Origin: Candidatus Omnitrophota bacterium
Lineage (GTDB): Bacteria > Omnitrophota > Omnitrophia > Omnitrophales > Aquincolibacteriaceae
Assembly (NCBI GenBank): GCA_043808175.1
Contig: JAZDFE010000040.1
Location: 1,410 to 65,409 of the forward strand
Direction: 5' to 3'
DNA length: 64,000 bases
Shown here: in pieces, positions 3,343 to 28,106 of the stretch
Layout of the letters: every line of letters starts with the position of its first letter
Numbering within the stretch: the first letter of the stretch is position 1
The notes under the pieces: generated by a model
The model's input: the letters and a program-made list of their open reading frames with translations, nothing else
Told to the model about the DNA's origin: nothing
Database searches by the model: none
Position numbers and translations under genes: made by a program

Positions 3343-3522
3343 AGGGGGGGGAGCTCCGTGAATTTTTGGATAAAAAAGGCCTGAAGCTTTTTTCAAAATG
3401 GGGTTCATCCTGATTTCTATTTTGTTGTTCCCGCTCAAGACAGAATCGAGATAACGCGCTAGAAAGAATACAAAGCCATCGGACTTCTATATATGTACGG
3501 CAAGCAGCGCATAACCCTAAGC

Positions 3523-3597
3523 GTCCTGGTTCTCAATTAAACGGTTAACCAGGACAGTCCAAACTTTTCACTTCTTTTCCAAAATGGTAGTTTGGAC
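3523..3597. repeat. Double-hairpin intergenic element, copy A (related to 14756..14836)
   Basis: gtcctggtt (3523-3531) pairs with aaccaggac (3547-3555). It is immediately followed by gtccaaac (3557-3564) pairing with gtttggac (3590-3597). The core GTCCTGGTTCTCA...GTTAACCAGRACAGTCC is shared with the reverse complement of 14791-14836. Confidence 0.5.
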
Positions 3598-5978: not shown

Positions 5979-7821
5979 TAATTGTGCGATTTATACACGG
6001 GTCTCGGTGGACGAGCGGGCGGAAACGCAAACGTATTCCACGCTCGATAACCAGCGGGATAGTTGTACTGCCTACATCGAAAGTCAAAAATCCCTTGGAT
6101 GGAAGGTCTTCAAGGTCTATGAGGATGCCGGGCAGTCCGGGGGATCGCTCAATCGCCCTGCCCTGAAGCAGCTTATCGAAGATATCAAGCGGAAGCGCAT
6201 CCAAACTGTGATGGTCTACAAGATCGACCGCCTCACCCGCAACCACAAAGATTTTTATTCCCTTCTTGAAGTTTTCAATGAACATGACGTCAAATTCGTT
6301 TCCACTACCCAGCATTTCGACACGGCCTCTCCGGCAGGGCGGCTCCTTCTTCACGTCATGCTGGAATTTGCCCAATTCGAACGGGAAATGTCACAGGAGC
6401 GGACTTACGACAAACGCTTTGCCATGGCCAAACGAGGCATGTGGTGCGGAGGATTTGTCCCTCTTGGATATATCGTGAAAAAAAAGAAACTTGTGATCCA
6501 TAAGGAAGAAGCCAAGATCGTGCAACTCTGCTTTGAGCTTTACCCCAAGCTGGCCTCCATGGGGAAGATCGCCGAAAAGCTCAACGAAATGGGCTATCGG
6601 ACCAAAAAATTCTACGTCCGAGGGAAAGATGCTGCCGGAAGCACAAAATTCGACAAGAAAAAGATCTCGAACATTCTGACGAATCATTTTTATATCGGGA
6701 AAGTCCGGTTCAAGGACAAGGACGGGAAACAATACATTTTCGACGGGGAGCAGAAGCCTATTATTACAGACAAAAAGCTTTGGGACAGCGTTCAGAACAT
6801 TTTGGTGAGTAACCGCGAGACCCACAAAACCTTCAAACAGAATAAATATGAAATGCTCTTCCTGGGTCTTGTGACATGCGGGCACTGCAGGAGCACCATG
6901 ACCAACTCTTCCAAGGAAAAAAAGGGCAAGATGTACCTTTATTACCGGTGCACCGCGGCGGTCATCAAGGACAAAAAGGCCTGCCCGGTCCGTACTGTTT
7001 CGGCGGATGAACTGGAAGACTTCCTCATTCAAAAATTCAAGGAACTCGGAGAAAATCCAACCCTTCTAGAAAAATCCATCGAGAAGGCCAATGGTATGGC
7101 TAAACAAGGCCTGGAACCTCTCAGACGGGACAAGGAACGCGCCGGATCACAGCTTGTAAAGATTGACCGGCAGTTAAAGCATTTGGTCGAATTTATCAAA
7201 ACGGGAGAATGTTCAGACAAGAAGAGATCGCGCGGGATCGTGAAGGAAATGTCCGATCTTGAAGACTCAAAAGAGAAACTGGAAGATGAGATCCACCGGA
7301 TCGATACCAACATGCAGCATTTGAGCCAGCATGTGATCGATGCGGATACCTTTGCGAGGCTCTTTAAGGAATTCCCGAAGGTCTTCGAGACGTTTTCTTT
7401 CGATGAGAAGAGGAATCTGATCTTGCTGCTTGTGAAGGAAGTGATCTATACGCCTACCAAACTGAGAGTTTTATTTTGGGGAGATATTCCTGAAATGGCT
7501 TTTAATCTGAAAAACCCGCCGGACTGGACCCCGCCGCCGGATGGCGGCGATACGCCCTACACTCCTAAAGGCTCCGATGGATCAAGTGTAGAAGCGCCCG
7601 TGCGAACCAGATACTTGGTTCGCACGGGCGTGTTGAATGGCTCCCCCGCCTGGGATCGAACCAGGGACACTGCGGTTAACAGCCGCATGCTCTACCAGCT
7701 GAGCTACAGGGGAATAACTTTTGAAAGAACAGCGATATTACTTTCGGAGGGGTTAATTATAAAGATTGCGGCCTTAGGGTCAATGGGTGTTTTTGGCCTT
7801 TGCTTTCCGCCTTCCAGCTGA
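5950..7821 (+). CDS. Large serine recombinase (resolvase/invertase N-domain + recombinase domain + zinc-ribbon)
   Basis: Starts at the internal ATG 5950 (MHPTTKDNVINCAIYTRVSVDE...). It has the catalytic Y-x-R-x-S motif, then DRLTRN, a recombinase domain, and the Cys cluster CGHC...CTAAVIKDKKAC. The listed ORF start 5719 is antisense to the beta-barrel gene. The 3' end is uncertain because the frame stays open through the tRNA on the other strand until 7821. Confidence 0.85.
   Translation: MHPTTKDNVINCAIYTRVSVDERAETQTYSTLDNQRDSCTAYIESQKSLGWKVFKVYEDAGQSGGSLNRPALKQLIEDIKRKRIQTVMVYKIDRLTRNHKDFYSLLEVFNEHDVKFVSTTQHFDTASPAGRLLLHVMLEFAQFEREMSQERTYDKRFAMAKRGMWCGGFVPLGYIVKKKKLVIHKEEAKIVQLCFELYPKLASMGKIAEKLNEMGYRTKKFYVRGKDAAGSTKFDKKKISNILTNHFYIGKVRFKDKDGKQYIFDGEQKPIITDKKLWDSVQNILVSNRETHKTFKQNKYEMLFLGLVTCGHCRSTMTNSSKEKKGKMYLYYRCTAAVIKDKKACPVRTVSADELEDFLIQKFKELGENPTLLEKSIEKANGMAKQGLEPLRRDKERAGSQLVKIDRQLKHLVEFIKTGECSDKKRSRGIVKEMSDLEDSKEKLEDEIHRIDTNMQHLSQHVIDADTFARLFKEFPKVFETFSFDEKRNLILLLVKEVIYTPTKLRVLFWGDIPEMAFNLKNPPDWTPPPDGGDTPYTPKGSDGSSVEAPVRTRYLVRTGVLNGSPAWDRTRDTAVNSRMLYQLSYRGITFERTAILLSEGLIIKIAALGSMGVFGLCFPPSS
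7595..7630. other. Perfect 14-bp stem / 8-nt loop hairpin between the recombinase domain end and the tRNA-Asn 3' end
   Basis: cgcccgtgcgaacc (7595-7608) + agatactt + ggttcgcacgggcg (7617-7630). There is no clear U-tract on either strand, so it could be a tRNA terminator or a recombination-site element. Confidence 0.4.
7638..7713 (-). tRNA. tRNA-Asn (anticodon GTT), CCA encoded
   Basis: The reverse complement reads TCCCCTG TA GCTC AGCTGGTA GAGC A TGCGG CTGTTAA CCGCA GTGTC CCTGG TTCGATC CCAGG CGGGGGA G CCA. This is a complete 76-nt cloverleaf with anticodon loop CT-GTT-AA. Confidence 0.9.
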
Positions 7822-8707: not shown

Positions 8708-9400
8708 CTATTTCACCGCCATGAATTTCATTTTACTTTCCCCGCAAAGAGGGCAGGCCTGGAAATTGGCTTTCTCCACCACATTCCCGCAGAAGGGACA
8801 AACATAAAAGTCTTTATTCTTGCCCTTCCATCCCCTTAGATTTTCAAGGGCATTTTTGTACAGATTCGCATGGACAGCTTCCGCCTTCCCGGCATCCTCA
8901 AAAGCATCGCTCGCGGATTTGATACCATCCTTTTCTGCTTTGGTCAAAAATCCAGGATACATGACCGTGCTTTCATAGATCTCGCCATCCATCGCGGCTT
9001 TAAGATTTTCCGCGGTGCTCTTTACGATCGGCGTTTCGATCGTGGCCGCAGGAACACCTTCGAGCTCTTTGATCGCTTTGGCATGACGTTCAAAATGGAC
9101 TTGCTCGGCACGGGCGGCGGCCCTGAAAAGACTCGCGGCTTTGCCGTACCCTTCCGCATCCGACTTTTGCGCGAACGCGAGATAGCGTGCATTGGCGTTG
9201 CTCTCGCCATTAAATGCGGTCTGAAGATTGTCGAGCGTGGTCTTTTCAACTGCCGCCTGAGGCGCAGAAGGCGCTCCCGGGATTGTCGCCGTGGCCGTCT
9301 GAACGGTTTCCGCAGTTTTCATTTCTTCGGCATAAGCGCAAAATGCACCGGCCCAAAAAAAGAAAGCAGCAACGATAAGAATCTTCTGAAGGTTCTTCAT
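8708..9400 (-). CDS. Rubrerythrin with an N-terminal signal-peptide-like extension
   Basis: Ferritin-like diiron motifs (ESNANARYLAFA, EQVHFERH, EAVHANLY) plus a C-terminal rubredoxin-type CPFCG...CPLCG. The N-terminus is MKNLQKILIVAAFFFWAGAFCAYA. Confidence 0.85.
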   Translation of the reverse strand: MKNLQKILIVAAFFFWAGAFCAYAEEMKTAETVQTATATIPGAPSAPQAAVEKTTLDNLQTAFNGESNANARYLAFAQKSDAEGYGKAASLFRAAARAEQVHFERHAKAIKELEGVPAATIETPIVKSTAENLKAAMDGEIYESTVMYPGFLTKAEKDGIKSASDAFEDAGKAEAVHANLYKNALENLRGWKGKNKDFYVCPFCGNVVEKANFQACPLCGESKMKFMAVK

Positions 9401-14755: not shown

Positions 14756-14836
14756 CCTGATCTCTTGTTTCTTTTCCCCAAGGGTGATCAGGACTGTTCT
14801 GGTTAACTTTCAATTTTAAATTAATGAGAACCAGGA
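14756..14836. repeat. Double-hairpin intergenic element, copy B (related to 3523..3597)
   Basis: cctgatc (14756-62) pairs with gatcagg (14786-92). Next to it, gttctggtt (14795-803) pairs with aaccaggac (14828-36). Confidence 0.45.
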
Positions 14837-14866
14837 CTGATTTCCAGTTGAAAAAATTAATGACAA

Positions 14867-16641: not shown

Positions 16642-16849
16642 GAAACCCTTTCTTTCAACCGTTCAACGAACCACGCTCCACGTACCACGTGGACCTTGTT
16701 CCGTGGAACGTGGCCCGCGGCGCTTCGACCCGCACATTCTATTTGATTTCCCACTTAAAATCAGTAAGCTTCATTCATCTATCCTTGTCTTGAATTCTTT
16801 ACTTAAAGGGTTGACAAGGATTGCCCCAATTTCAACTTTGTTGAAATTG

Positions 16850-18076
16850 ATGAGAATTGGGACTATGGATCAAAACAAAAGAAAAGCCTTCCAACTCATC
16901 CTTCTCTTTGGCCTTGTGAGTCTTTTTGGGGACATCATTTACGAGGGGGCGCGAAGTGTCAATGGTCCGTATCTCAAAGTCCTCGGGGCGAATGCCCTCG
17001 TGGTCGGATTTGTCGCGGGGCTTGGAGAATTCATGGGCTACGGCATACGCCTTTTGTCCGGATATTTTTCTGACAAAACAAAGTCCTATTGGTTCTTCAC
17101 GATCCTGGGCTATGCCCTCCTCATCAGTGTCCCTCTCCTGGCGCTTACCGGATTCTGGAAGATCGCGGCGCTCCTGATCGTGATGGAGCGCATCGGAAAA
17201 GCTATCCGAAGCCCCGCCAAGGACACCATTCTTTCTCAAGCCACCAAGCAGGTCGGCACCGGGTTCGGTTTTGGCCTTAATGAGGCCATGGACCAGATCG
17301 GGGCGATCATCGGGCCTCTTCTTTTTACGGTCGCGTTCATGGGAACCGCCCAGGCCGAAAAAGGTCTCCGGGATTATCAGGCGGGTTATCACCTGCTTTG
17401 GTTGCCCTTCTTTTTCTTGATGGCTTGCGTTCTTTTCGCTTACTGGAAAACGCCGAACCCTGAAATGCTTGAAACCACGGTCACAAAAAACGAGTCTGAA
17501 AAACTCCCGAAGATCTTTTGGCTTTACACTGCATTCAGTTTCTTCGCCACCGCGGGCTTCGTAAGCTTTGTCCTGATGGCTTATCATTTTAAAGCCAGGC
17601 ATGTGCTTTCCGACGCCCAGATCCCTTTTTTCTATGCGATCGCCATGGGCGTCGACGGCGTCGCGGCGCTCGTGATCGGAAAGATCTACGACCGGATGAA
17701 AAAGAAGCAAAAACACGAGTGGGCCGGTATCGGGACGCTTCTCATGATCCCGGTCCTCTCGGCCGTGATCCCTTTCCTTTGTTTCACCACGACACCCTGG
17801 ATCGTCATTGTGAGCATCCTTCTCTGGGGTATTGTCATGGCAGGACATGAAACCATTATGAAATCCGCGATCGCGGACATCACACCGCTGAGAAAACGTG
17901 GCACCGGCTACGGCATCCTGAATGTGGCCTACGGCCTTGCGATGCTCGCGGGCGGCATCGCGATGGGCTTCCTCTACGACCGTTCGCTCCTCGCGCTCAT
18001 GATCGGCGTCGCGGTACTGGAACTTGTCTCGTTGCCCTTTTTCTTCGCCATGAAAAAAGAAATCTCTACATCTTGA
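16850..18076 (+). CDS. MFS transporter
   Basis: About 12 predicted TM segments. Probable start is the internal ATG 16850 (or 16865); the upstream 70 codons of the ORF run through a CCACG/CGTGG hairpin region. Confidence 0.8.
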   Translation: MRIGTMDQNKRKAFQLILLFGLVSLFGDIIYEGARSVNGPYLKVLGANALVVGFVAGLGEFMGYGIRLLSGYFSDKTKSYWFFTILGYALLISVPLLALTGFWKIAALLIVMERIGKAIRSPAKDTILSQATKQVGTGFGFGLNEAMDQIGAIIGPLLFTVAFMGTAQAEKGLRDYQAGYHLLWLPFFFLMACVLFAYWKTPNPEMLETTVTKNESEKLPKIFWLYTAFSFFATAGFVSFVLMAYHFKARHVLSDAQIPFFYAIAMGVDGVAALVIGKIYDRMKKKQKHEWAGIGTLLMIPVLSAVIPFLCFTTTPWIVIVSILLWGIVMAGHETIMKSAIADITPLRKRGTGYGILNVAYGLAMLAGGIAMGFLYDRSLLALMIGVAVLELVSLPFFFAMKKEISTS

Positions 18077-18167
18077 AGCAAGCTAAAGTATAATCTCCCA
18101 TCGCTTTTTAGAAAAACTGCGGTTTCGGCGTCATAATGACCCGTTTGTTTTTAAATTAAGGAGAATC

Positions 18168-18866
18168 ATGGCCCTAAGTGGGTGGTTCAAGTTCAAAAAG
18201 ATCAGGCTGTTGCTGGCCTGGGGCTCGATCCCTGTCCTGCTCCTTTGTTCTCATATGAACGACCGGACTTTCCGCTGGGGTATTGTGCTCGTGGTCATTG
18301 GCGAACTGATCCGTTTTTGGGCGCTCGGGTTCGTGGAGAAAAAAGGCCGGAAGCTCGCCATGAACGGCCCTTATGCCTTCGTGCGCAATCCCCTTTATGT
18401 CGGCAATTTTTTCTTAGGGCTGGGCGTCGCAGTGATCGTTTGGAATTGGATCATTCTGGTCCTTTTCCTTGCCGGATTCTTGGGGATCTATACGGGAACC
18501 ATTCGCGGTGAGGAAAAACACTTGCGCGAAATGTTCGGTAAACCTTATGAGGATTATTGCAAGAATGTCCCGTCCTTCCTTCCGAGATTGACGCCTCATG
18601 TAGCGCCTGAAAAAGAATCCTTCCTCTGGAGCCGCATCATCAAGCATCACGAGTACATCACGGTTGCCGGCATCTTCCTCATGCTCATGATGATCCATCT
18701 TTATGATGAACTCTTCCTCGCCAAAGAACCCGTGGCCCATGAAATGCCCTTGATCATCGCCACCATGATCCTAGTGCTGGCGCTGGCGCTTGAGCGGGTC
18801 TTTGTCAGCCGCCTCCACATCACGTTCTTTGAGCGCCTGCGCGAAAAAGACACTCCGAAAAAATAG
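18168..18866 (+). CDS. Isoprenylcysteine carboxyl / phospholipid methyltransferase family membrane protein
   Basis: NGPYAFVRNPLYVGNFFLGLG and IRGEEKHL motifs of the ICMT/PEMT family. Confidence 0.75.
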   Translation: MALSGWFKFKKIRLLLAWGSIPVLLLCSHMNDRTFRWGIVLVVIGELIRFWALGFVEKKGRKLAMNGPYAFVRNPLYVGNFFLGLGVAVIVWNWIILVLFLAGFLGIYTGTIRGEEKHLREMFGKPYEDYCKNVPSFLPRLTPHVAPEKESFLWSRIIKHHEYITVAGIFLMLMMIHLYDELFLAKEPVAHEMPLIIATMILVLALALERVFVSRLHITFFERLREKDTPKK

Positions 18867-22049: not shown

Positions 22050-22952
22050 ATGCAGGAAAAACCTTCTTTCAGCTATTGGTTTCAGTACCTCATCGTCCGT
22101 TTTTTGGCCATGCTCGCAACAGCGCTTCCGGTAGAGGTTTCACACAGGATCGCCTGCGGATTCGGGACTTTGTCCTACTGGATCTTGAGAAAGCGCCGCA
22201 AGATCGCGCTTGAAAATATCGCGAGCGCCCTTGGGGATTCCCTTCCGGAACGAAGAAAGAAAGAGATCGCGCGCTCCGCGTTCCAAAGCGCCGCGCTTTC
22301 CATGATGGAACTTTTCACGGTCGAGAAGATCAAAAAAGAGGCCCCGACACGTTTCAAACTCTTCGGGAATGAATTCCTGGAAGAAGCCTTTTCAAAAGAG
22401 CACGGTGTCGTGCTGGTCATCTCCCATCTGGGTTCCTGGGAATATCTTTCATTCCTTCCCTATTTCACGAAGCGGCCGTGGTCTGTCGTGGTCAAAAACA
22501 TCAAAAATCCTTATCTCGATCAGGCGATCGACGCGATGCGCCGCGTCATGACCGTTAATCCGATCGCTAAAGACAGTTCGGTCAGAGCCATTTTTCACGA
22601 ACTTAAAACCGGCCATGGGGTCGCCATTCTGGTCGATCAGTGGGCGGGCAAAGAAGGCCTCTGGGTCGATTTTTTTGATACCAAGACCTCGACCACTTCG
22701 ATCCCCGCCCGGCTCTCCGAAAAGACCGGCTGCGCGCTTGTTTCCGCGTACTGCCTCCGGAAAGCCCCGGGACATTACGAGATTCATATCGAAAAACCTA
22801 TGCTTCATGATATGAACCAACCGGGATGGGAAAATACGGTCACGAAAGACCTCAACCAGATCCTTGAACGCCAGATACTGGCGCATCCTGAGCAATGGCT
22901 CTGGGGCCATCGCAGGTGGAAAAATAAACCCGACAATCTCCGGTCGTCTTGA
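22050..22952 (+). CDS. Lysophospholipid / lipid A biosynthesis (LpxL/HtrB-type) acyltransferase
   Basis: SHLGSWEY (HX4E/D-type) motif and HPEQWLWGHRRWK C-terminus typical of the LpxL family. Start at ATG 22050, preceded by AGGA. Confidence 0.8.
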   Translation: MQEKPSFSYWFQYLIVRFLAMLATALPVEVSHRIACGFGTLSYWILRKRRKIALENIASALGDSLPERRKKEIARSAFQSAALSMMELFTVEKIKKEAPTRFKLFGNEFLEEAFSKEHGVVLVISHLGSWEYLSFLPYFTKRPWSVVVKNIKNPYLDQAIDAMRRVMTVNPIAKDSSVRAIFHELKTGHGVAILVDQWAGKEGLWVDFFDTKTSTTSIPARLSEKTGCALVSAYCLRKAPGHYEIHIEKPMLHDMNQPGWENTVTKDLNQILERQILAHPEQWLWGHRRWKNKPDNLRSS

Positions 22953-24118
22953 TGGACATCGAACTCAAGATCGAAAAGCTGGTGTTTGGCGGTGACGGCC
23001 TGGGATTCGTTGACGGAAAGGCCTGCTTCGTGGAAAGGGCCCTTCCGGGCGAGAAGATCCTCGCGCGGATCTTAAGCGACAAACCTAACTTCATGAAAGC
23101 AAGGCTCATCCGCGTCCTGGAGGCTTCTCCATGCCGTATTCCTCCGCCCTGTTCTTATATCGAACGCTGCGGCGGCTGCCAGTATCAGGATCTCCCCTAC
23201 CCCGAAGAATTGAAATGGAAAGAACGCCAGGTGCGTGAAAGTTTCGCTCAGGCGTTCAAGACCGAGGAGATCCCCATCCTTCCGATCCAACAGGGTCCCA
23301 AGGAATACGGCTACCGGACGAGCATCACGATCCACCGCACCACAGAGAAAAACAACAAACCCCAGCGCCTCGGTTTCATCGGCCATGACAACTATTCCAA
23401 GGTCTTGATCGATTATTGCATGCTCGCCGACGAGCGACTCAGGGAGATTTTTACCGCCGAACACAAGCTCAACAGGCGCGAGGAAAAAAGAGGTTTCAAG
23501 CTGGACGAAAAGGGCCGGATCTTCACAAATGATGAGGAAAAACTTTATCGCGTTAGTATCGGCGGCCAATCGCTCTGGGCGAGCTCCATGGGGTTCTTTC
23601 AGAATAATATCGAAGTGACGGAACTCATCGCAAAAAAATTGGGGGGGTATCTCGAGGCCTTAAAACCCTCCAGGTTCTTGGATCTCTACGCCGGCGTTGG
23701 GACTTTTCCGCTTCTCGCAGCCCGAGGCGTACCCGAGGTCCATTGTTTTGAAGACAGCCCCTACAGCACGGGCTGTCTCAGAAGAAATGTCGGGGAATGG
23801 GAATTGCCTCTGGCGGGGATTTTCGCGGGAAAAGTCGAGAAAATATTCCCGCGTTTTATCCTTCGCAGCCCCAAGCCGGGAGCACTGGTATTCATGGACC
23901 CGCCGCGACAGGGGATCGCATCGTCGCTTGCGGATTTTTTGGCTAAAGAAGATGTCGGGGAGAACATCCTTTATCTTGCCTGCGACCTTCAGATCCTTTT
24001 GCGGGACTTGAAGCAGATCCTCGAAAGGGGCCGCTACAAGATCCGGGAAGTCATTCCCTTCGACATGTTCCCCCGCACAAAGCACATCGAGGTGCTGGTC
24101 TGGCTCTCTAAAATTTAG
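22949..24118 (+). CDS. TRAM-domain 23S rRNA (uracil-C5)-methyltransferase RlmD-like
   Basis: N-terminal TRAM-like beta-barrel, Fe-S Cys cluster (CSYIERCGGCQYQ), a SAM-binding fold, and the C-terminal FDMFPRTKHIE motif. Confidence 0.8.
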   Translation: MMDIELKIEKLVFGGDGLGFVDGKACFVERALPGEKILARILSDKPNFMKARLIRVLEASPCRIPPPCSYIERCGGCQYQDLPYPEELKWKERQVRESFAQAFKTEEIPILPIQQGPKEYGYRTSITIHRTTEKNNKPQRLGFIGHDNYSKVLIDYCMLADERLREIFTAEHKLNRREEKRGFKLDEKGRIFTNDEEKLYRVSIGGQSLWASSMGFFQNNIEVTELIAKKLGGYLEALKPSRFLDLYAGVGTFPLLAARGVPEVHCFEDSPYSTGCLRRNVGEWELPLAGIFAGKVEKIFPRFILRSPKPGALVFMDPPRQGIASSLADFLAKEDVGENILYLACDLQILLRDLKQILERGRYKIREVIPFDMFPRTKHIEVLVWLSKI

Positions 24119-25311
24119 GCTGTTTTCCCGGCCACGGCGCCGCTGGCCCAGGCCCAGGCGAGATTGTAGCCGCCCCGCCGTCCCTGCACATCGAGTACTT
24201 CCCCGGCAAAATAAAGACCTTTTTGGAGCTTGGACTCCAGCGTCAGAGGATCCACTTCTTCCGCCGGGATCCCGCCCGCCGTGAATTCCGCTTCATTCCA
24301 GCCGCGTGTGCCGATTACTTTGAATTCTTTGTGCTTGAGTGATCTAGCGATCGCGGCAACGTCGGAACCTTGCAACATTCCGCGAAGGAGACCCGACACC
24401 TTATGAGGCAAGAGTCCCTCCGCAAGGCTCTCGCGGGCGATGCCTCTTGTCAATTTTCCGGACAACTCCGCGATTAGTTCTTTTTCGCCCATGAACGGAA
24501 TAAGATCTACAACCACGGAAACATTCGTCTCATGATCGCGGTTCAGGGCGACCGAGATCTCATCGCTCACATCCAGGACTGCCGTGCCGGAAAGTCCGTA
24601 CTGGGTAAATAAGAGTTCGCCGGAAGCCGTGCGAACTTCTTTCCCGCGAACGCGGCTTGTCACGGAGACCCGGAGCTTCTGTCCCTGGAGCGTGTGGCAC
24701 CACGGATCTTTCACGAGCAAGGGAACAGTGCTCGGTACCGGTTCAATGATCTTGTGCCCGAACATCGAGGCAAGCACGTAGCCGTTCCCATCCGCGCCCA
24801 GTGCGGGATAAGACTTCCCTCCGGCGCACAAGATGACTTTGCGGCCCGTTTCCCGCTCTCCGCTTCCCGCCGAGATCTCAAATCCATTTTTCGCGACACG
24901 AATGTTTTTTATTTCGCAGCCAAGATCGATCGTCACCTTAAGCCTCTCAAGCTCCATCTCAAGCACCTTGAGCGCCGAGGCCGCCTGGTTCGTCACCGGG
25001 AAGATCCGGCCCACTTCATCCGCGTAGGTCGCAAGGCCCAGCTCTTTGAAAAATCCGAGCACGGCTTCTTTTCCGAACTGGCCCAGGACCGAACGGACAA
25101 GCGTTTGGCTTCCCGGATTATAAAAAGAATCGTTGAGGATGTCGTTCGAGAGATTGCAACGGCCGGCACCCGTGATGAGCAGTTTTTTCCCGAGTTTCGT
25201 CATTTTTTCGCACACGAGGACCGACGCGCCCCGGCGCTTGACGGTGATCGCCGCCATCATTCCCGCCGCACCACCTCCGATGATGATCACATCATACTGA
25301 GCCATAGTCAC
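24115..25311 (-). CDS. NAD(P)/FAD-dependent oxidoreductase, HI0933/BaiN family
   Basis: YDVIIIGGGAAGMMAA dinucleotide fold and the C-terminal GRRGGYNLAWAWASG motif. Confidence 0.8.
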   Translation of the reverse strand: MTMAQYDVIIIGGGAAGMMAAITVKRRGASVLVCEKMTKLGKKLLITGAGRCNLSNDILNDSFYNPGSQTLVRSVLGQFGKEAVLGFFKELGLATYADEVGRIFPVTNQAASALKVLEMELERLKVTIDLGCEIKNIRVAKNGFEISAGSGERETGRKVILCAGGKSYPALGADGNGYVLASMFGHKIIEPVPSTVPLLVKDPWCHTLQGQKLRVSVTSRVRGKEVRTASGELLFTQYGLSGTAVLDVSDEISVALNRDHETNVSVVVDLIPFMGEKELIAELSGKLTRGIARESLAEGLLPHKVSGLLRGMLQGSDVAAIARSLKHKEFKVIGTRGWNEAEFTAGGIPAEEVDPLTLESKLQKGLYFAGEVLDVQGRRGGYNLAWAWASGAVAGKTA

Positions 25312-27103
25312 CTTGCTTTCTCGGGAAATGGCTAACGGAAAACGCGGAACGCTTCCTATTCTTCGTTTGCCGTTCCCCGCTCATCGTTCCCCTTCTTTTC
25401 GGCTGAATCCACTCACGTTGAACTTGCCGTTCCTTGTAGGTTTTTGCGGTCGCGACCCGTTCACCGGTCATCGGGTGCTTACCCGTGTAATACATGCAGG
25501 TCGAAAGGGTCATGGGCAATGGCATAAAGTCCTGTACCTGCTCCGGATGCATTCGTTTCGCGGATAAATAGGCGGCAAGCTCCCTGGCGTCCCCGTCCGT
25601 ACATCCTGGATGCGCGCTGATGAAATAATTCACGAGATATTGTTCTTTGCCGGCTTTCCGGTTCATAGTTTTAAATCGCCCGGCAAACCGCTCGTAGACC
25701 TCGATCGGCGGTTTATTCATTATCTTGAGCACAGCGTTCGAGGCGTGTTCCGGAGCGACTTTCAACTGACCGCTTACATGGCTCTTGCAAAGCGCTTCGA
25801 GATACGCATCCGATTCTTTTTCTACGAGCAGGTCATACCGGAGACCGCTTTGAATGAAAAGGTGCTTGACCTTCGGGACGGCCAGAACTTCTTTCCAGAG
25901 CTTGATGGATTTTTCATACCCGAGCCTCAAGCTTTTGCATTTCACGGGCATCATGCACTGCTTCGTCTTGCAAGCGCCCGAATGCTCCCATTGTTCGCAT
26001 GTGGCGCCGTAGAGATTTGCGGTCGGGCCACCGATATCGGTGATCGTGCCCTTGAACTTTGATTGGCGCGCCAAGATCCGGACCTCTTCTAGGATCGACT
26101 CTTGGCTACGGCTCTGGATCATCCGTCCCTGATGCGCAAAAAGGGAGCAAAAATTGCATTCTCCGGCGCAACCTCGATGCCCCGTAATGGAAAAACGCAC
26201 CGTTTCAAATCCAGGAACACCGCCTGCCGTTTCATAAACCGGATGCCATTCGCGAGTGAAGGGCAGGCCGTAATAATGATCGAGCACGGCCGTTGTAAGC
26301 GGCAACGCGGGCGGCTCCTGGATCACGAAACGAGTGCCGTGTTTCTGGATCACGGGCTTCCCTCGCACGGGATCCCCTTCCGGATACGCGAGCCTGAACG
26401 CTTCATTGAACTTATCCTTATCGGTACTCGCCTCCTCAAAAGAAGGCAACGGGACCGCGCTTTCAAAACCTTCGTTATGGTTCCGGACGATTACCGTACC
26501 CCGGATATCTTTCAGTTTCTTAATGTCCTCCCCGTCACAAAGGCGCCTCGCGATCTCACGGACCTGGCTCTCCCCCATGCCGTAAACCAGCAGATCCGCT
26601 TTCGCATCCACCAGGATCGAACGGCGCACGTCCTCGGTCCAATAATCAAAATGCGCGAGGCGCCGGAGGCTCGCCTCGACGCCGCCAAGGATCACGGGCA
26701 CGCCGGGAAAAAGTTCTTTTACTCTGTTTGTATAAACGATCGAAGCGCGGTTAGGCCTCAGGCCCGGCCGGCCGCTCGGTGAATAATCATCCGTACGCCG
26801 CGGTTTTTTACTCGCGGTGTAATTGCTCACCATGGAATCGAGATTACCGGCCGTGATCCCGAAAAAAAGCCGGGGACGCCCCAGCGCGAGAAAATCCACG
26901 GAAGTCTTCCAATCGGGCTGCGCGATGATCCCGACCTTGTAACCCGCATCTTCAAGGACCCGCCCGATGATCGCCGCGCCGTAGGAAGGATGATCCACAT
27001 ACGCGTCCCCCGTCACCAGGATGATGTCGCACGCGTCCCAGCCTCGTTCCGTAAGATCTTGCTTGGATATGGGAAGGAAATTTTTCCGCTCTGTTTTTGA
27101 CAT
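25292..27103 (-). CDS. ygiQ: YgiQ family radical SAM protein
   Basis: FLPISKQDLTERGWDACDIILVTGDAYVDHPSYG N-domain and CAGECNFC radical-SAM cluster. The start is moved to ATG 27103 (MSKTERK...). Confidence 0.85.
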   Translation of the reverse strand: MSKTERKNFLPISKQDLTERGWDACDIILVTGDAYVDHPSYGAAIIGRVLEDAGYKVGIIAQPDWKTSVDFLALGRPRLFFGITAGNLDSMVSNYTASKKPRRTDDYSPSGRPGLRPNRASIVYTNRVKELFPGVPVILGGVEASLRRLAHFDYWTEDVRRSILVDAKADLLVYGMGESQVREIARRLCDGEDIKKLKDIRGTVIVRNHNEGFESAVPLPSFEEASTDKDKFNEAFRLAYPEGDPVRGKPVIQKHGTRFVIQEPPALPLTTAVLDHYYGLPFTREWHPVYETAGGVPGFETVRFSITGHRGCAGECNFCSLFAHQGRMIQSRSQESILEEVRILARQSKFKGTITDIGGPTANLYGATCEQWEHSGACKTKQCMMPVKCKSLRLGYEKSIKLWKEVLAVPKVKHLFIQSGLRYDLLVEKESDAYLEALCKSHVSGQLKVAPEHASNAVLKIMNKPPIEVYERFAGRFKTMNRKAGKEQYLVNYFISAHPGCTDGDARELAAYLSAKRMHPEQVQDFMPLPMTLSTCMYYTGKHPMTGERVATAKTYKERQVQREWIQPKRRGTMSGERQTKNRKRSAFSVSHFPRKQGDYGSV

Positions 27104-27212
27104 GACGGGATTATAACCTCTCCGTAAAGCAAAGACCACAATCCCAATGCGCTTCGTCAACGCTCAGCTCGCCCCAGCGAGGCGCTCTTCGCTCGCGCGT
27201 TCGACTTCACTC

Positions 27213-27362
27213 GACGGACAGGAATCGTAACGAGACAGCTCTCGGAGCTGATGGGAGCTTGGTTCCGCTCGCAAAGAGCGGATCCCATCAGCGAGAGCGC
27301 AGGCTGGCACTCGCCGCAGGAGCGAGTGAACAGCCGGTGTCGAAAGACGATTCCTGTCCGTC
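27213..27362. other. 150-nt element closed by a perfect 16-bp inverted repeat with two internal extended hairpins (candidate structured ncRNA or MITE-like element)
   Basis: gacggacaggaatcgt (27213-28) pairs with acgattcctgtccgtc (27347-62). Inside are gctctcg+ctgatggga...tcccatcag+cgagagc with the inner stem ccgctc/gagcgg, and ggctg+cactcgc...gcgagtg+cagcc. Confidence 0.45.
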
Positions 27363-27524
27363 ACCGTGCCCGTTCCGTCTCGCGAGCGTGCCTCATCGCA
27401 CTGGAATTGCTAATCGATGGAAGTGAAAAGCGCCGGAGAAAAAGCGTCACTGCTTGGCAGGCGAAAATCTCGTGCTATAATGAGGCGCTTTAATGACAAT
27501 CATAAGCAAATAGGAGGAAATATC

Positions 27525-28106
27525 ATGCCATTCACACTTCCGGAACTTCCTTATGCCTGGGACGCCCTTGCCCCACAGATCAGTAAAGAAACGCTCGAAT
27601 ACCATTACGGCAAACATCACAACGCCTATGTGACGAACCTGAACAAGTTAACGGACGGAAAACCCGAAGGCGGCAAATCCCTTGAAGAACTCATCAAAAC
27701 CGCCAAGGGACCTGTATTCAATAATGCCGCGCAGGTCTGGAACCACACGTTCTACTGGCATTGCTTGAAGCCCCAGGGCGGCGGACTTCCTACCGACGCT
27801 TTACTCGAAGCGATCAATGCTTCCTTCGGAAGTTTTGAGGAGTTTAAAACGCTTTTTACGAACATGGCGATCGGTCTCTTCGGATCTGGTTGGGCATGGT
27901 TGGTCAAAGATGAGGACGGAACGGTCGGGATCGAATCCATGTCGAATGCCGGCAATCCCCTCGTGAACGGCCAAACGCCCCTTCTGACTTGCGATGTGTG
28001 GGAGCATGCTTACTATATTGATTACCGGAATGCCCGCGCGAAATATGTAGAGGCGTTTTGGAATTTGGTGAATTGGGAGTTTGTGGCGAAAAATTTGCAA
28101 AAATAA
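27525..28106 (+). CDS. sodB: Fe/Mn superoxide dismutase
   Basis: MPFTLPELPYAWDALAPQISKETLEYHYGKHH... and DVWEHAYYIDYRN. AGGAGG lies 8 nt upstream of ATG 27525. Confidence 0.9.
   Translation: MPFTLPELPYAWDALAPQISKETLEYHYGKHHNAYVTNLNKLTDGKPEGGKSLEELIKTAKGPVFNNAAQVWNHTFYWHCLKPQGGGLPTDALLEAINASFGSFEEFKTLFTNMAIGLFGSGWAWLVKDEDGTVGIESMSNAGNPLVNGQTPLLTCDVWEHAYYIDYRNARAKYVEAFWNLVNWEFVAKNLQK

Follow-up and report, generated by a model that had tools for sequence, protein, structure and literature searches.

A family of large, structured elements at changing intergenic sites in Omnitrophota genomes

The spacer separating the divergent genes sodB and ygiQ in a 64,000-nt stretch of DNA from a Candidatus Omnitrophota bacterium (contig JAZDFE010000040.1, positions 1,410 to 65,409; here the window) hosts an element of ~282 nt, in which a set of inverted repeats is the core of an 11-helix structure sealed by an outer closing stem and best read on the minus strand, the sense strand of ygiQ. 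The element belongs to a previously undescribed family, of which 12 copies are known, all from metagenome-assembled genomes (MAGs) or metagenome contigs of Omnitrophota, and all at unrelated intergenic sites. The secondary structure is supported by covariation beyond chance, and the same spacer may be filled or empty in close relatives. On balance, the data favour a new family of Omnitrophota elements, which relocate and work as strongly structured single strands, the window copy most probably acting as RNA within, or released from, the ygiQ leader.

Fold and covariation

The first-pass annotation of the window had flagged densely nested perfect inverted repeats at 27161-27420, between ygiQ and sodB, as a candidate structured RNA or an insertion resembling a MITE, a miniature transposable element with inverted repeats. 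The setting is confirmed, as the minus-strand ygiQ gene spans 25292-27103 and the plus-strand sodB gene starts at 27525. The closest YgiQ matches assign the window to a Candidatus Omnitrophota MAG, and look-ups of identical proteins returned no record for its YgiQ and SodB. The flagged span is correctly located, but covers only approximately the inner half to two-thirds of the ~27134-27415 element. A perfect inverted repeat (27213-27228 / 27347-27362), made of 16-nt arms which are 100% complementary and spaced by 118 nt, encloses two extended helices that had been accurately described: GCTCTCG-GAG-CTGATGGGA...TCCCATCAG-CGAGAGC, with the inner hairpin CCGCTC-GCAAA-GAGCGG, and GGCTG-G-CACTCGC-CGCAGGA-GCGAGTG-AA-CAGCC. 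The GC-rich palindromes noticed at the flanks are real and part of the same element, the one at 27162-27192 corresponding to helix P7, and CTCGCGAG (27379-27386) lying in the 5' strand of helix P2. The core (27205-27370, 166 nt) folds at -97.3 kcal/mol on the plus strand (z = -8.5) and at -96.0 kcal/mol on the minus strand (z = -7.9), and on either strand none of 200 shuffled sequences is as stable; for the whole element z is -6.5. Inverted repeats with a 12-nt seed within 400 nt are only five in the whole window, the core repeat included.

The bounds of the element were derived from homology to L001:6758-7051 (90%) and to copies in L023, L012, L017, L025 and L019 (L numbers denote the loci compared), and nhmmer places the window copy at 27135-27416 (E = 1e-86). 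Its parts, all on the minus strand, are the following.

27134..27415, minus: whole structured element, A-type copy, ~282 nt (extent of homology)
27397..27412, minus: 5' strand of outer stem P1, UAGCAAUUCCAGUGCG, paired with 27136-27151; 13 of 16 pairs changed on both sides, G.U pairs on the minus strand only
27136..27151, minus: 3' strand of P1, CGCAUUGGGAUUGUGG (consensus fold); alternative pairing with the ygiQ Shine-Dalgarno (SD) region in the extended leader
27377..27388, minus: 5' strand of P2, holding the conserved palindrome CUCGCGAG (27379-27386), paired with 27194-27205; 9 pairs, 4 changed on both sides, 92% paired
27194..27205, minus: 3' strand of P2, GUCGAACGCGCG, followed by conserved GCGCGAGCGA (27189-27198) (consensus fold)
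27347..27362, minus: 5' strand of P3, one arm of the 16-bp inverted repeat, GACGGACAGGAAUCGU; 11 of 16 family pairs changed on both sides
27213..27228, minus: 3' strand of P3, other arm of the 16-bp inverted repeat (inverted repeat and consensus fold)
27302..27335, minus: P5 hairpin with the conserved loop UCCUGCG (27315-27321); 9 of 13 pairs changed on both sides, loop-closing U.G invariant
27238..27298, minus: P6/P6a/P6b hairpin with the invariant 7-nt bulge ACCAAGC (27257-27263) and a CUC bulge; P6a 99% paired, 5 of 10 pairs covarying, P6b 5 of 7
27234..27237, minus: 3' strand of P4, UGUC, paired with 27338-27341 (GACA), connecting P3 with the P5/P6 three-way junction (consensus helix 5)
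27162..27192, minus: P7 hairpin of the 3' domain, apical CUC-GCU-GGG and a conserved U.G present in 9 of 10 copies; 7 of 10 pairs covarying

The folded strand would be a rod-like molecule, in which P1 and P2 lead into the 16-bp P3, P3 bears the three-way junction formed by P4, P5 and P6, and P7 branches as a further hairpin near the base of the rod.

Evidence for the fold comes from alignment A5, which includes ten full copies from which nested inserts had been removed. The consensus structure counts 95 pairs, distributed over 11 helices (-147.8 kcal/mol; covariation term, -14.1). Standard pairs are formed in 94.3% of the cells, against 80.5 ± 0.7% after shuffling, and 34-42% when partners are slid by 1-3 columns. 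Pairs changed on both sides are 59 out of 95, against 28.5 ± 3.5 after shuffling (a figure of 59 is reached in none of 500 trials), and 9-16 with slid partners; the long helices P1, P3, P5 and P7 contribute in the proportions listed above. The sequence of P1 is wholly different in L013 and L015. Replacements of paired segments are found in P4, where GACA/UGUC is replaced by GGCA/UGCC in L013, in P6, where UCCG/CGGA is replaced by CCUG/CAGG in L025 and in the second L019 copy (L019_2), and in P7, where GAUCGCC/GGCGAUC of A-type copies corresponds to UUUUUUC/GAAAAAA in B-type copies. Unpaired columns are more conserved than paired ones (46% versus 29% invariant), and the motifs UCCNGCG, ACCAAGCUCC, GCUCCGA, GCGCGAG and CGCUGGG are invariant or nearly so. 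Between the orthologous copies L001_b and L025 there are 9 compensated double changes; under independent change ~3 would be expected, counting every kind of double change. The fold has thus been maintained in place, though both copies are antisense to their neighbours. Homologous copies therefore retain pairing through compensatory changes, in line with the structured-RNA half of the initial proposal. Coding potential was rejected. The minus-strand open reading frame (ORF) is interrupted by frameshifts or stops in most other copies, and the dismissal of the two overlapping ORFs as spurious was sound, the evidence concerning the minus-strand one.

Copies, subtypes and insertion sites

Copies were found by pattern scans of metagenome and species-genome collections, and among relatives fetched via YgiQ homologues. 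They are named after the loci in which they reside: the window, L001 (L001_a and L001_b), L025, L012, L013, L015, L017, L019 (two copies) and L023. The search for additional copies, proposed as a MITE test, had a twofold outcome, as blastn, nhmmer and the covariance model found no second copy in the window, but 11 further copies reside in related genomes. In the closest relative, L001, a 297-bp match 90% identical to the window element is found at a different locus, between acyltransferase and iron-containing alcohol dehydrogenase (Fe-ADH) genes, and a second, diverged copy lies upstream of the L001 ygiQ gene. Three subtypes can be distinguished. Seven copies, the window one included, are A-type, three are B-type (L015, one in L019, and the chimeric L001_a), one is C-type (L013). 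A-type copies are 79-90% identical among themselves, identity falling to 53-62% between subtypes. The termini of A-type copies are made by a conserved 15-bp terminal inverted repeat, AGCAATCCCAGTGCG / CGCATTGGGATTGCT, which includes a conserved G.U pair; the outer stem of B- and C-type copies is unrelated in sequence to the A-type one, and is still paired.

The exact-pattern scan of GTDB species genomes returned 1-2 hits per MAG, and by pattern scanning the copy number is 1-3 per genome. This is a lower bound, as the pattern misses approximately a sixth of the known copies (2 of 12, L025 and L019_2), in which the GGAUCCG search motif itself varies, and scans consequently under-count the family. 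The covariance model assigned 112-173 bits to element cores and matched nothing else; it was used for searching only, and not as structural evidence, because its automatic consensus lost part of P3. Pattern hits in L010 and L011 were discarded as chance matches inside a tRNA-synthetase gene, and those in L014, L016, L018 and L020-L022 as chance matches in coding DNA of other phyla. No match was found in viral contigs, phage records or plasmid records. Comparison to Rfam 15, also proposed at the outset, returned no family for any of the three subtypes, and at both gathering and permissive thresholds only noise was obtained (E >= 1.9, 12-18 bits, versus gathering scores of 36-90).

Relatives differ in the presence of the element. 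The sodB-ygiQ spacer is empty in L002-L009, L024, L025 and L026, whose YgiQ proteins are 82-88% identical, and the comparison of this spacer among relatives, as had been suggested, proved informative. Since close relatives lack the element between sodB and ygiQ, it was gained at this site in the lineage common to the window and L001. The L001 copy at the ygiQ site keeps the 3' junction of the window copy, but its core is B-type and its 5' domain truncated, suggesting that copies have recombined. In turn, the spacer between the acyltransferase and Fe-ADH genes hosts a copy in L001 and L025, and none in the window, L002, L004 and L007; in L026 whole-locus scans found no copy, though this spacer was not looked at specifically. 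At the boundaries of the copies, neither target-site duplications nor direct repeats were seen, and the comparison of filled and empty spacers gave no clean insertion junction. Spacers have diverged, and this makes clean junctions and target-site duplications unrecoverable. The 5' flanks share no motif, and no conserved tetranucleotide or target motif is present at the 5' boundary. In the loci examined no autonomous insertion sequence with matching termini was found. In L007 a peroxiredoxin gene (AhpC/1-Cys Prx, L007:5118-5702) is found between sodB and ygiQ, and the divergent spacer is accordingly a variable spot for oxidative-stress genes.

In three contigs, A-type and B-type copies lie on the same strand at a distance of 3-8 kb, on either side of ordinary housekeeping genes. 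These are L001 (1259-1600 and 6758-7051), L017 plus L015 (PLLJ01000039.1, 8 kb apart) and L019 (3383-3017 and 361-2). In two contigs the B-type copy comes first, in the third the A-type one. Random placement does not account for such short distances, for which local hopping, duplication or a paired function may be responsible. An expanded version of the element 3' domain, ~120-140 nt in length, is found inside L001_a (L001:1461-1599), and also as a stand-alone, reversed unit upstream of an L019 copy (L019:3456-3595), where it has its own 12-bp inverted repeat (GGGAAGTATGTT/AACATACTTCCC). The family is modular.

Strand, neighbouring genes and a second repeat

The inverted repeats had been considered strand-neutral, all pairs being Watson-Crick. 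This does not hold for the complete element, because both the outer stem and P7 have G.U pairs, which form on the minus strand only. The full element folds at -148.2 kcal/mol on the minus strand and at -138.0 kcal/mol on the plus strand, thus 10 kcal/mol better on the minus. Across the family, the ratio of G.U to A.C cells is 52:21 in the sense fold and 23:18 in the antisense fold, and two U.G pairs are invariant or nearly so. Fold energy, wobble bias and invariant U.G pairs favour the minus, ygiQ-sense strand as the functional one, and the functional form would be a single strand, most likely acting as RNA. The element is sense to the downstream gene at ~7 of 9 independent sites, mostly 35-90 nt from the start of the gene, at ~360 nt in L023. 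Some copies start 8-10 nt after an upstream stop codon, and must be therefore co-transcribed. No shared promoter or terminator, nor one proper to the element, was found across copies.

The signals flanking the window copy are the following.

27101..27123, minus: ygiQ start codon (27103-27101), conserved TATAAT-like box (27110-27115) and SD sequence GGAGAGG (27117-27123)
27454..27481, plus: sodB promoter-like site, TTGGCA-16-TATAAT with a TG extension, 11 of 12 matches; outside the element, reading away from it

P1 ends at 27136, 33 nt upstream of the ygiQ AUG (the aligned block reaches 27134). In the extended leader, the minimum free energy fold pairs the P1 3' strand to the ygiQ SD region, and the centroid fold keeps P1. 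This pairing should be taken as no more than a hint, the SD-side sequence being part of ygiQ rather than a family property. The stretch GGAGAGG/GGGAAGG followed by UUAUAAUCC immediately precedes the ygiQ start (window 27110-27123, minus strand) and is kept in all relatives, L002-L026, with or without the element. The TATAAT-like box, whose end is 6 nt from the AUG, may act as a promoter of leaderless type, or belong to a hairpin sequestering the SD sequence.

Genes located downstream of the copies are unrelated (ygiQ, citrate synthase, glycogen phosphorylase, acetyltransferase, and the UG9 reverse transcriptase, RT), and no protein partner is constant across copies. In L023 the element lies ~360 nt upstream, on the same strand, of a gene encoding a full-length UG9 RT (E = 3e-171), which is followed by RTasPolA (E = 2e-130). 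Within the UG/Abi RTs, UG9 falls in Class 1 and works with a family-A polymerase; no non-coding RNA (ncRNA) has been described for it, while several UG/Abi systems need an adjacent ncRNA (PMC9226505). The UG9 RT was rejected as a partner, because only 1 of the 12 copies is linked to it, and its closest relatives, 50-53% identical and from other phyla (L027-L029), lack the element; in these the RT is preceded by only 36 nt, and conservation between UG9 loci is confined to coding DNA. The L023 region (L023:1343-4587, minus strand, and downstream) looks like a defence island, with the UG9-small RT and the RT-associated family-A polymerase followed by a small AbrB/MazE-like gene; a 59-aa ORF, or a gene remnant, is possibly found between the element and the RT. 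An Omnitrophota-specific DUF1016/SNase nuclease gene diverges from the 5' end of the element in L001 and L012. It was also rejected as a partner, since the L001 and L012 loci are homologous only within the coding sequence, and a 74%-identical orthologue resides in an operon with no element nearby. Both UG9 RT and DUF1016 nuclease look like cassettes landed next to the element. The DUF1016_N plus SNase nuclease (L012:7298-10205; L001:223-1245; L030-L035) matches the PADLOC candidate PDC-S02, and its gene is usually followed by those for a protein of ~300 aa unmatched in Pfam and for a DUF5131 protein, sometimes also by an N6/N4 methyltransferase gene. Many members are found on contigs barely exceeding the gene, which suggests that flanking repeats break the assemblies.

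A second dispersed repeat, independent of the main element, is a mini-element of ~83 nt made of two hairpins, GTCCCAAT...ATTGGGGC, and GTCCT...AGGAC with an AT-rich loop. The window hosts one copy (16781-16863, minus strand; nhmmer E = 5e-13), which abuts the start codon of a plus-strand gene at ~16866, and weaker partial matches at 3522-3566 (minus), 14785-14837 (plus) and 18129-18170 (plus); other copies are in L002, L004, L007, L012 and L026. Copies in L026 (8336-8417), L007 (9353-9435) and L004 (~9217-9353) are inserted in-frame in the ORF of a tRNA (uracil-5)-methyltransferase, orthologous to the window gene at 22949-24118. The encoded protein is thereby lengthened, between PRFI[VI]H and SPKPG and immediately ahead of the DPPR motif, by 28 aa in L026 and L007 and, with two copies, by 56 aa in L004. 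The methyltransferase genes of the window and L002 have no mini-element. Insertions of this type resemble the Rickettsia palindromic elements found in ORFs. The mini-element is also nested in four copies of the main element, always in the sense orientation (L017:2058-2141; L019:3203-3286 and 182-263; L012:6862-6940). Three insertion positions are used, all in predicted loops or junctions, and in both L019 copies, one A-type and one B-type, the P5 loop is split at the same point, UCCN^GCG. Rfam gives a single hit in the window, a tRNA gene (63 bits), located right beside a perfect 15-bp hairpin, CGCCCGTGCGAACCA/TGGTTCGCACGGGCG (7595-7630 and 7641-7713, minus strand).

Competing explanations and related systems

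According to the reading favoured on balance, the window copy would be included in the ygiQ leader transcript, having neither promoter nor terminator of its own. In the leader it may work as a protein-binding, processing or stability module; alternatively, it may be excised at its long double-stranded base, yielding a free RNA. Over evolutionary time, the element would relocate among intergenic sites by a mechanism leaving no target-site duplication. A more ambitious version, to be entertained tentatively, sees in these elements a new Omnitrophota-specific class of large (~285 nt) functional RNA, a ribonucleoprotein (RNP) scaffold or ribozyme-like molecule released from host transcripts; each genome would have its two paralogous subtypes (A and B), and the element would move from locus to locus, offering a landing pad to other mobile DNA, such as the 83-nt mini-element, the DUF1016 nuclease cassette and the UG9 defence island.

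Several observations weigh against an RNA acting within leaders. The sequences are only 10-12, in three subtypes, and many compensatory cells are inherited, rather than independent events. G.T wobbles and covariation fit a single-stranded DNA structure equally well. The 7:2 bias in orientation is not significant. Three copies at two independent sites (L001_b/L025, and L012) are antisense to both neighbours and keep the fold; an RNA role would here require a dedicated promoter, and a sigma-70 scan found none. Finally, a very stable, nearly fully paired rod (-148 kcal/mol) resembles selfish palindromic repeats.

In the main rival, the element would be a mobile or recombination element working as single-stranded DNA, either recognized by a trans-acting HUH/Y1 enzyme or a similar one, in the manner of IS200/IS605-derived PATEs or REP/REPIN-RAYT, or acting like a single-strand origin, in which case covariation would mirror the needs of the enzyme, and not an RNA function. 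We consider this unlikely. Presence or absence of copies between close relatives, at unrelated loci, agrees with it, as do the lack of target-site duplications, as in the IS200/IS605 and IS110 families, the strand specificity of wobble pairs, the retention of the fold in a copy antisense to local transcription, the same-strand pairs 3-8 kb apart in three contigs, and the circulation of other small hairpin repeats in the same genomes. Yet, no transposase, RAYT or integrase adjoins any of the 12 copies, the 5' boundary bears neither the tetranucleotide nor the target motif, 11 helices with two three-way junctions and at least 6 conserved unpaired motifs make a fold far more elaborate than known transposase-recognition hairpins, and 1-3 copies per genome, as counted by pattern scan, are unlike REP/REPIN numbers. 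An ordinary MITE working as double-stranded DNA, in which hairpin potential is a functionless by-product of terminal inverted repeats, is a far poorer candidate and is largely refuted. What stands of the MITE-like insertion first proposed is the insertion polymorphism between close relatives, and the occurrence at other loci, of a small, non-coding, intergenic element with a 15-bp terminal inverted repeat in A-type copies. A classical MITE was rejected, since target-site duplications are missing, copies are few, the three subtypes have outer stems of different sequence while pairing is kept, and the fold is multi-branched with conserved loops; moreover, compensatory changes occur in internal, non-terminal helices and between orthologous copies, and loops are more conserved than stems.

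Two rivals keep the RNA but tie it to a neighbouring gene. In the former, the element would be a riboswitch-like, cis-regulatory leader, whose P1 competes with a helix hiding the ygiQ ribosome-binding site. Most copies are indeed sense and precede a start codon by 35-90 nt, the arrangement is aptamer-like, with P1 closing a multi-helix junction and nucleotides conserved in junction and loops, and the P1/SD pairing in the minimum free energy fold, if not in the centroid, goes in the same direction. The explanation is nevertheless improbable, because downstream genes are unrelated, close relatives have ygiQ without the element, three copies, from two sites, lie antisense to the adjacent genes, stems as long and stable as P1 (13-20 bp) and P3 (16 bp) do not suit a switch, and the segment pairing to the SD region is ygiQ flank, and is not seen at other copies. 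In the latter, the element would be the template or ncRNA of the UG9 RT plus PolA system, dispersed copies having been retro-mobilized in the manner of short interspersed elements, or orphaned. The location of the L023 copy upstream of the RT on the same strand, and the dependence of several UG/Abi systems on an adjacent ncRNA (PMC9226505), may be taken in support. This is the least credible of the alternatives, and we disfavour it: a single copy out of 12 is near an RT, the window has neither RT nor PolA, UG9 relatives lack the element, no ncRNA is described for UG9 (PMC9226505), and copies feature neither a poly-A tail nor a series of 5' truncations.

Among known systems, bcr1, ERIC and Correia/NEMIS are small, non-coding intergenic repeats, co-transcribed with neighbouring genes, whose positions are not conserved between close relatives, and structure at the RNA level is maintained by compensatory changes in bcr1-type repeats (PMC3184786). 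The bcr1 repeat of the Bacillus cereus group is the nearest analogue in behaviour, sharing both non-conserved positions and compensatory maintenance of structure. However, bcr1 is ~155 bp in length, folds as a simple cruciform of two stems, has 5-bp direct repeats on its flanks and is present in many copies, whereas the Omnitrophota element is ~285 nt, has 11 helices, two three-way junctions and conserved loops, lacks direct repeats, and is found in 1-3 copies per genome. REP/REPIN-RAYT systems and the PATEs of the IS200/IS605 group similarly feature strand-specific hairpins, no target-site duplication, intergenic dispersal and structures kept by covariation. These, in turn, are made of 1-2 simple hairpins of 20-100 nt, with a conserved terminal tetranucleotide and a Y1 transposase, and are usually high-copy, properties none of which is seen here; no Y1 (HUH) transposase gene adjoins any copy in the loci examined. 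The ncRNAs of UG/Abi (DRT) systems and retron msr-msd are 150-300-nt structured RNAs with paired 5' and 3' ends, and the L023 copy lies upstream of an RT; yet 11 of 12 copies are unlinked to an RT, and UG9 loci elsewhere have no element. Integron attC sites were discarded, as no cassette array and no integrase are found in any locus, and a multi-branched ~285-nt element compares poorly with imperfect palindromes of 57-141 bp; the R'/R'' core sites were not formally searched. OLE, GOLLD, ROOL, raiA and HEARO/omega RNA are in a similar size class, and have many covarying helices, conserved unpaired nucleotides, a restricted range and a frequent association with mobile DNA. The element resembles them in architecture, with no homology: it has no match in Rfam 15, neither IscB/TnpB nor OLE-associated proteins accompany it, its locus varies between close relatives, and no promoter or terminator of its own was detected.

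Omnitrophota are an abundant, uncultured and poorly understood phylum, for which neither Rfam 15 nor the literature on repeats and ncRNAs turned up a lineage-specific structured RNA or repeat family. The element accounts for contig breaks and spurious ORF calls in these MAGs, and the covariance model set up in this work offers a means of annotating the family. Few large RNAs combine numerous covarying helices with invariant loops, and those that do have repeatedly proved to be ribozymes, guide RNAs or RNP scaffolds. The Omnitrophota element joins a fold of this kind with mobility and with repeated insertions of other elements into its loops, and may thus provide a tractable case for studying how selfish spread and RNA function coexist.

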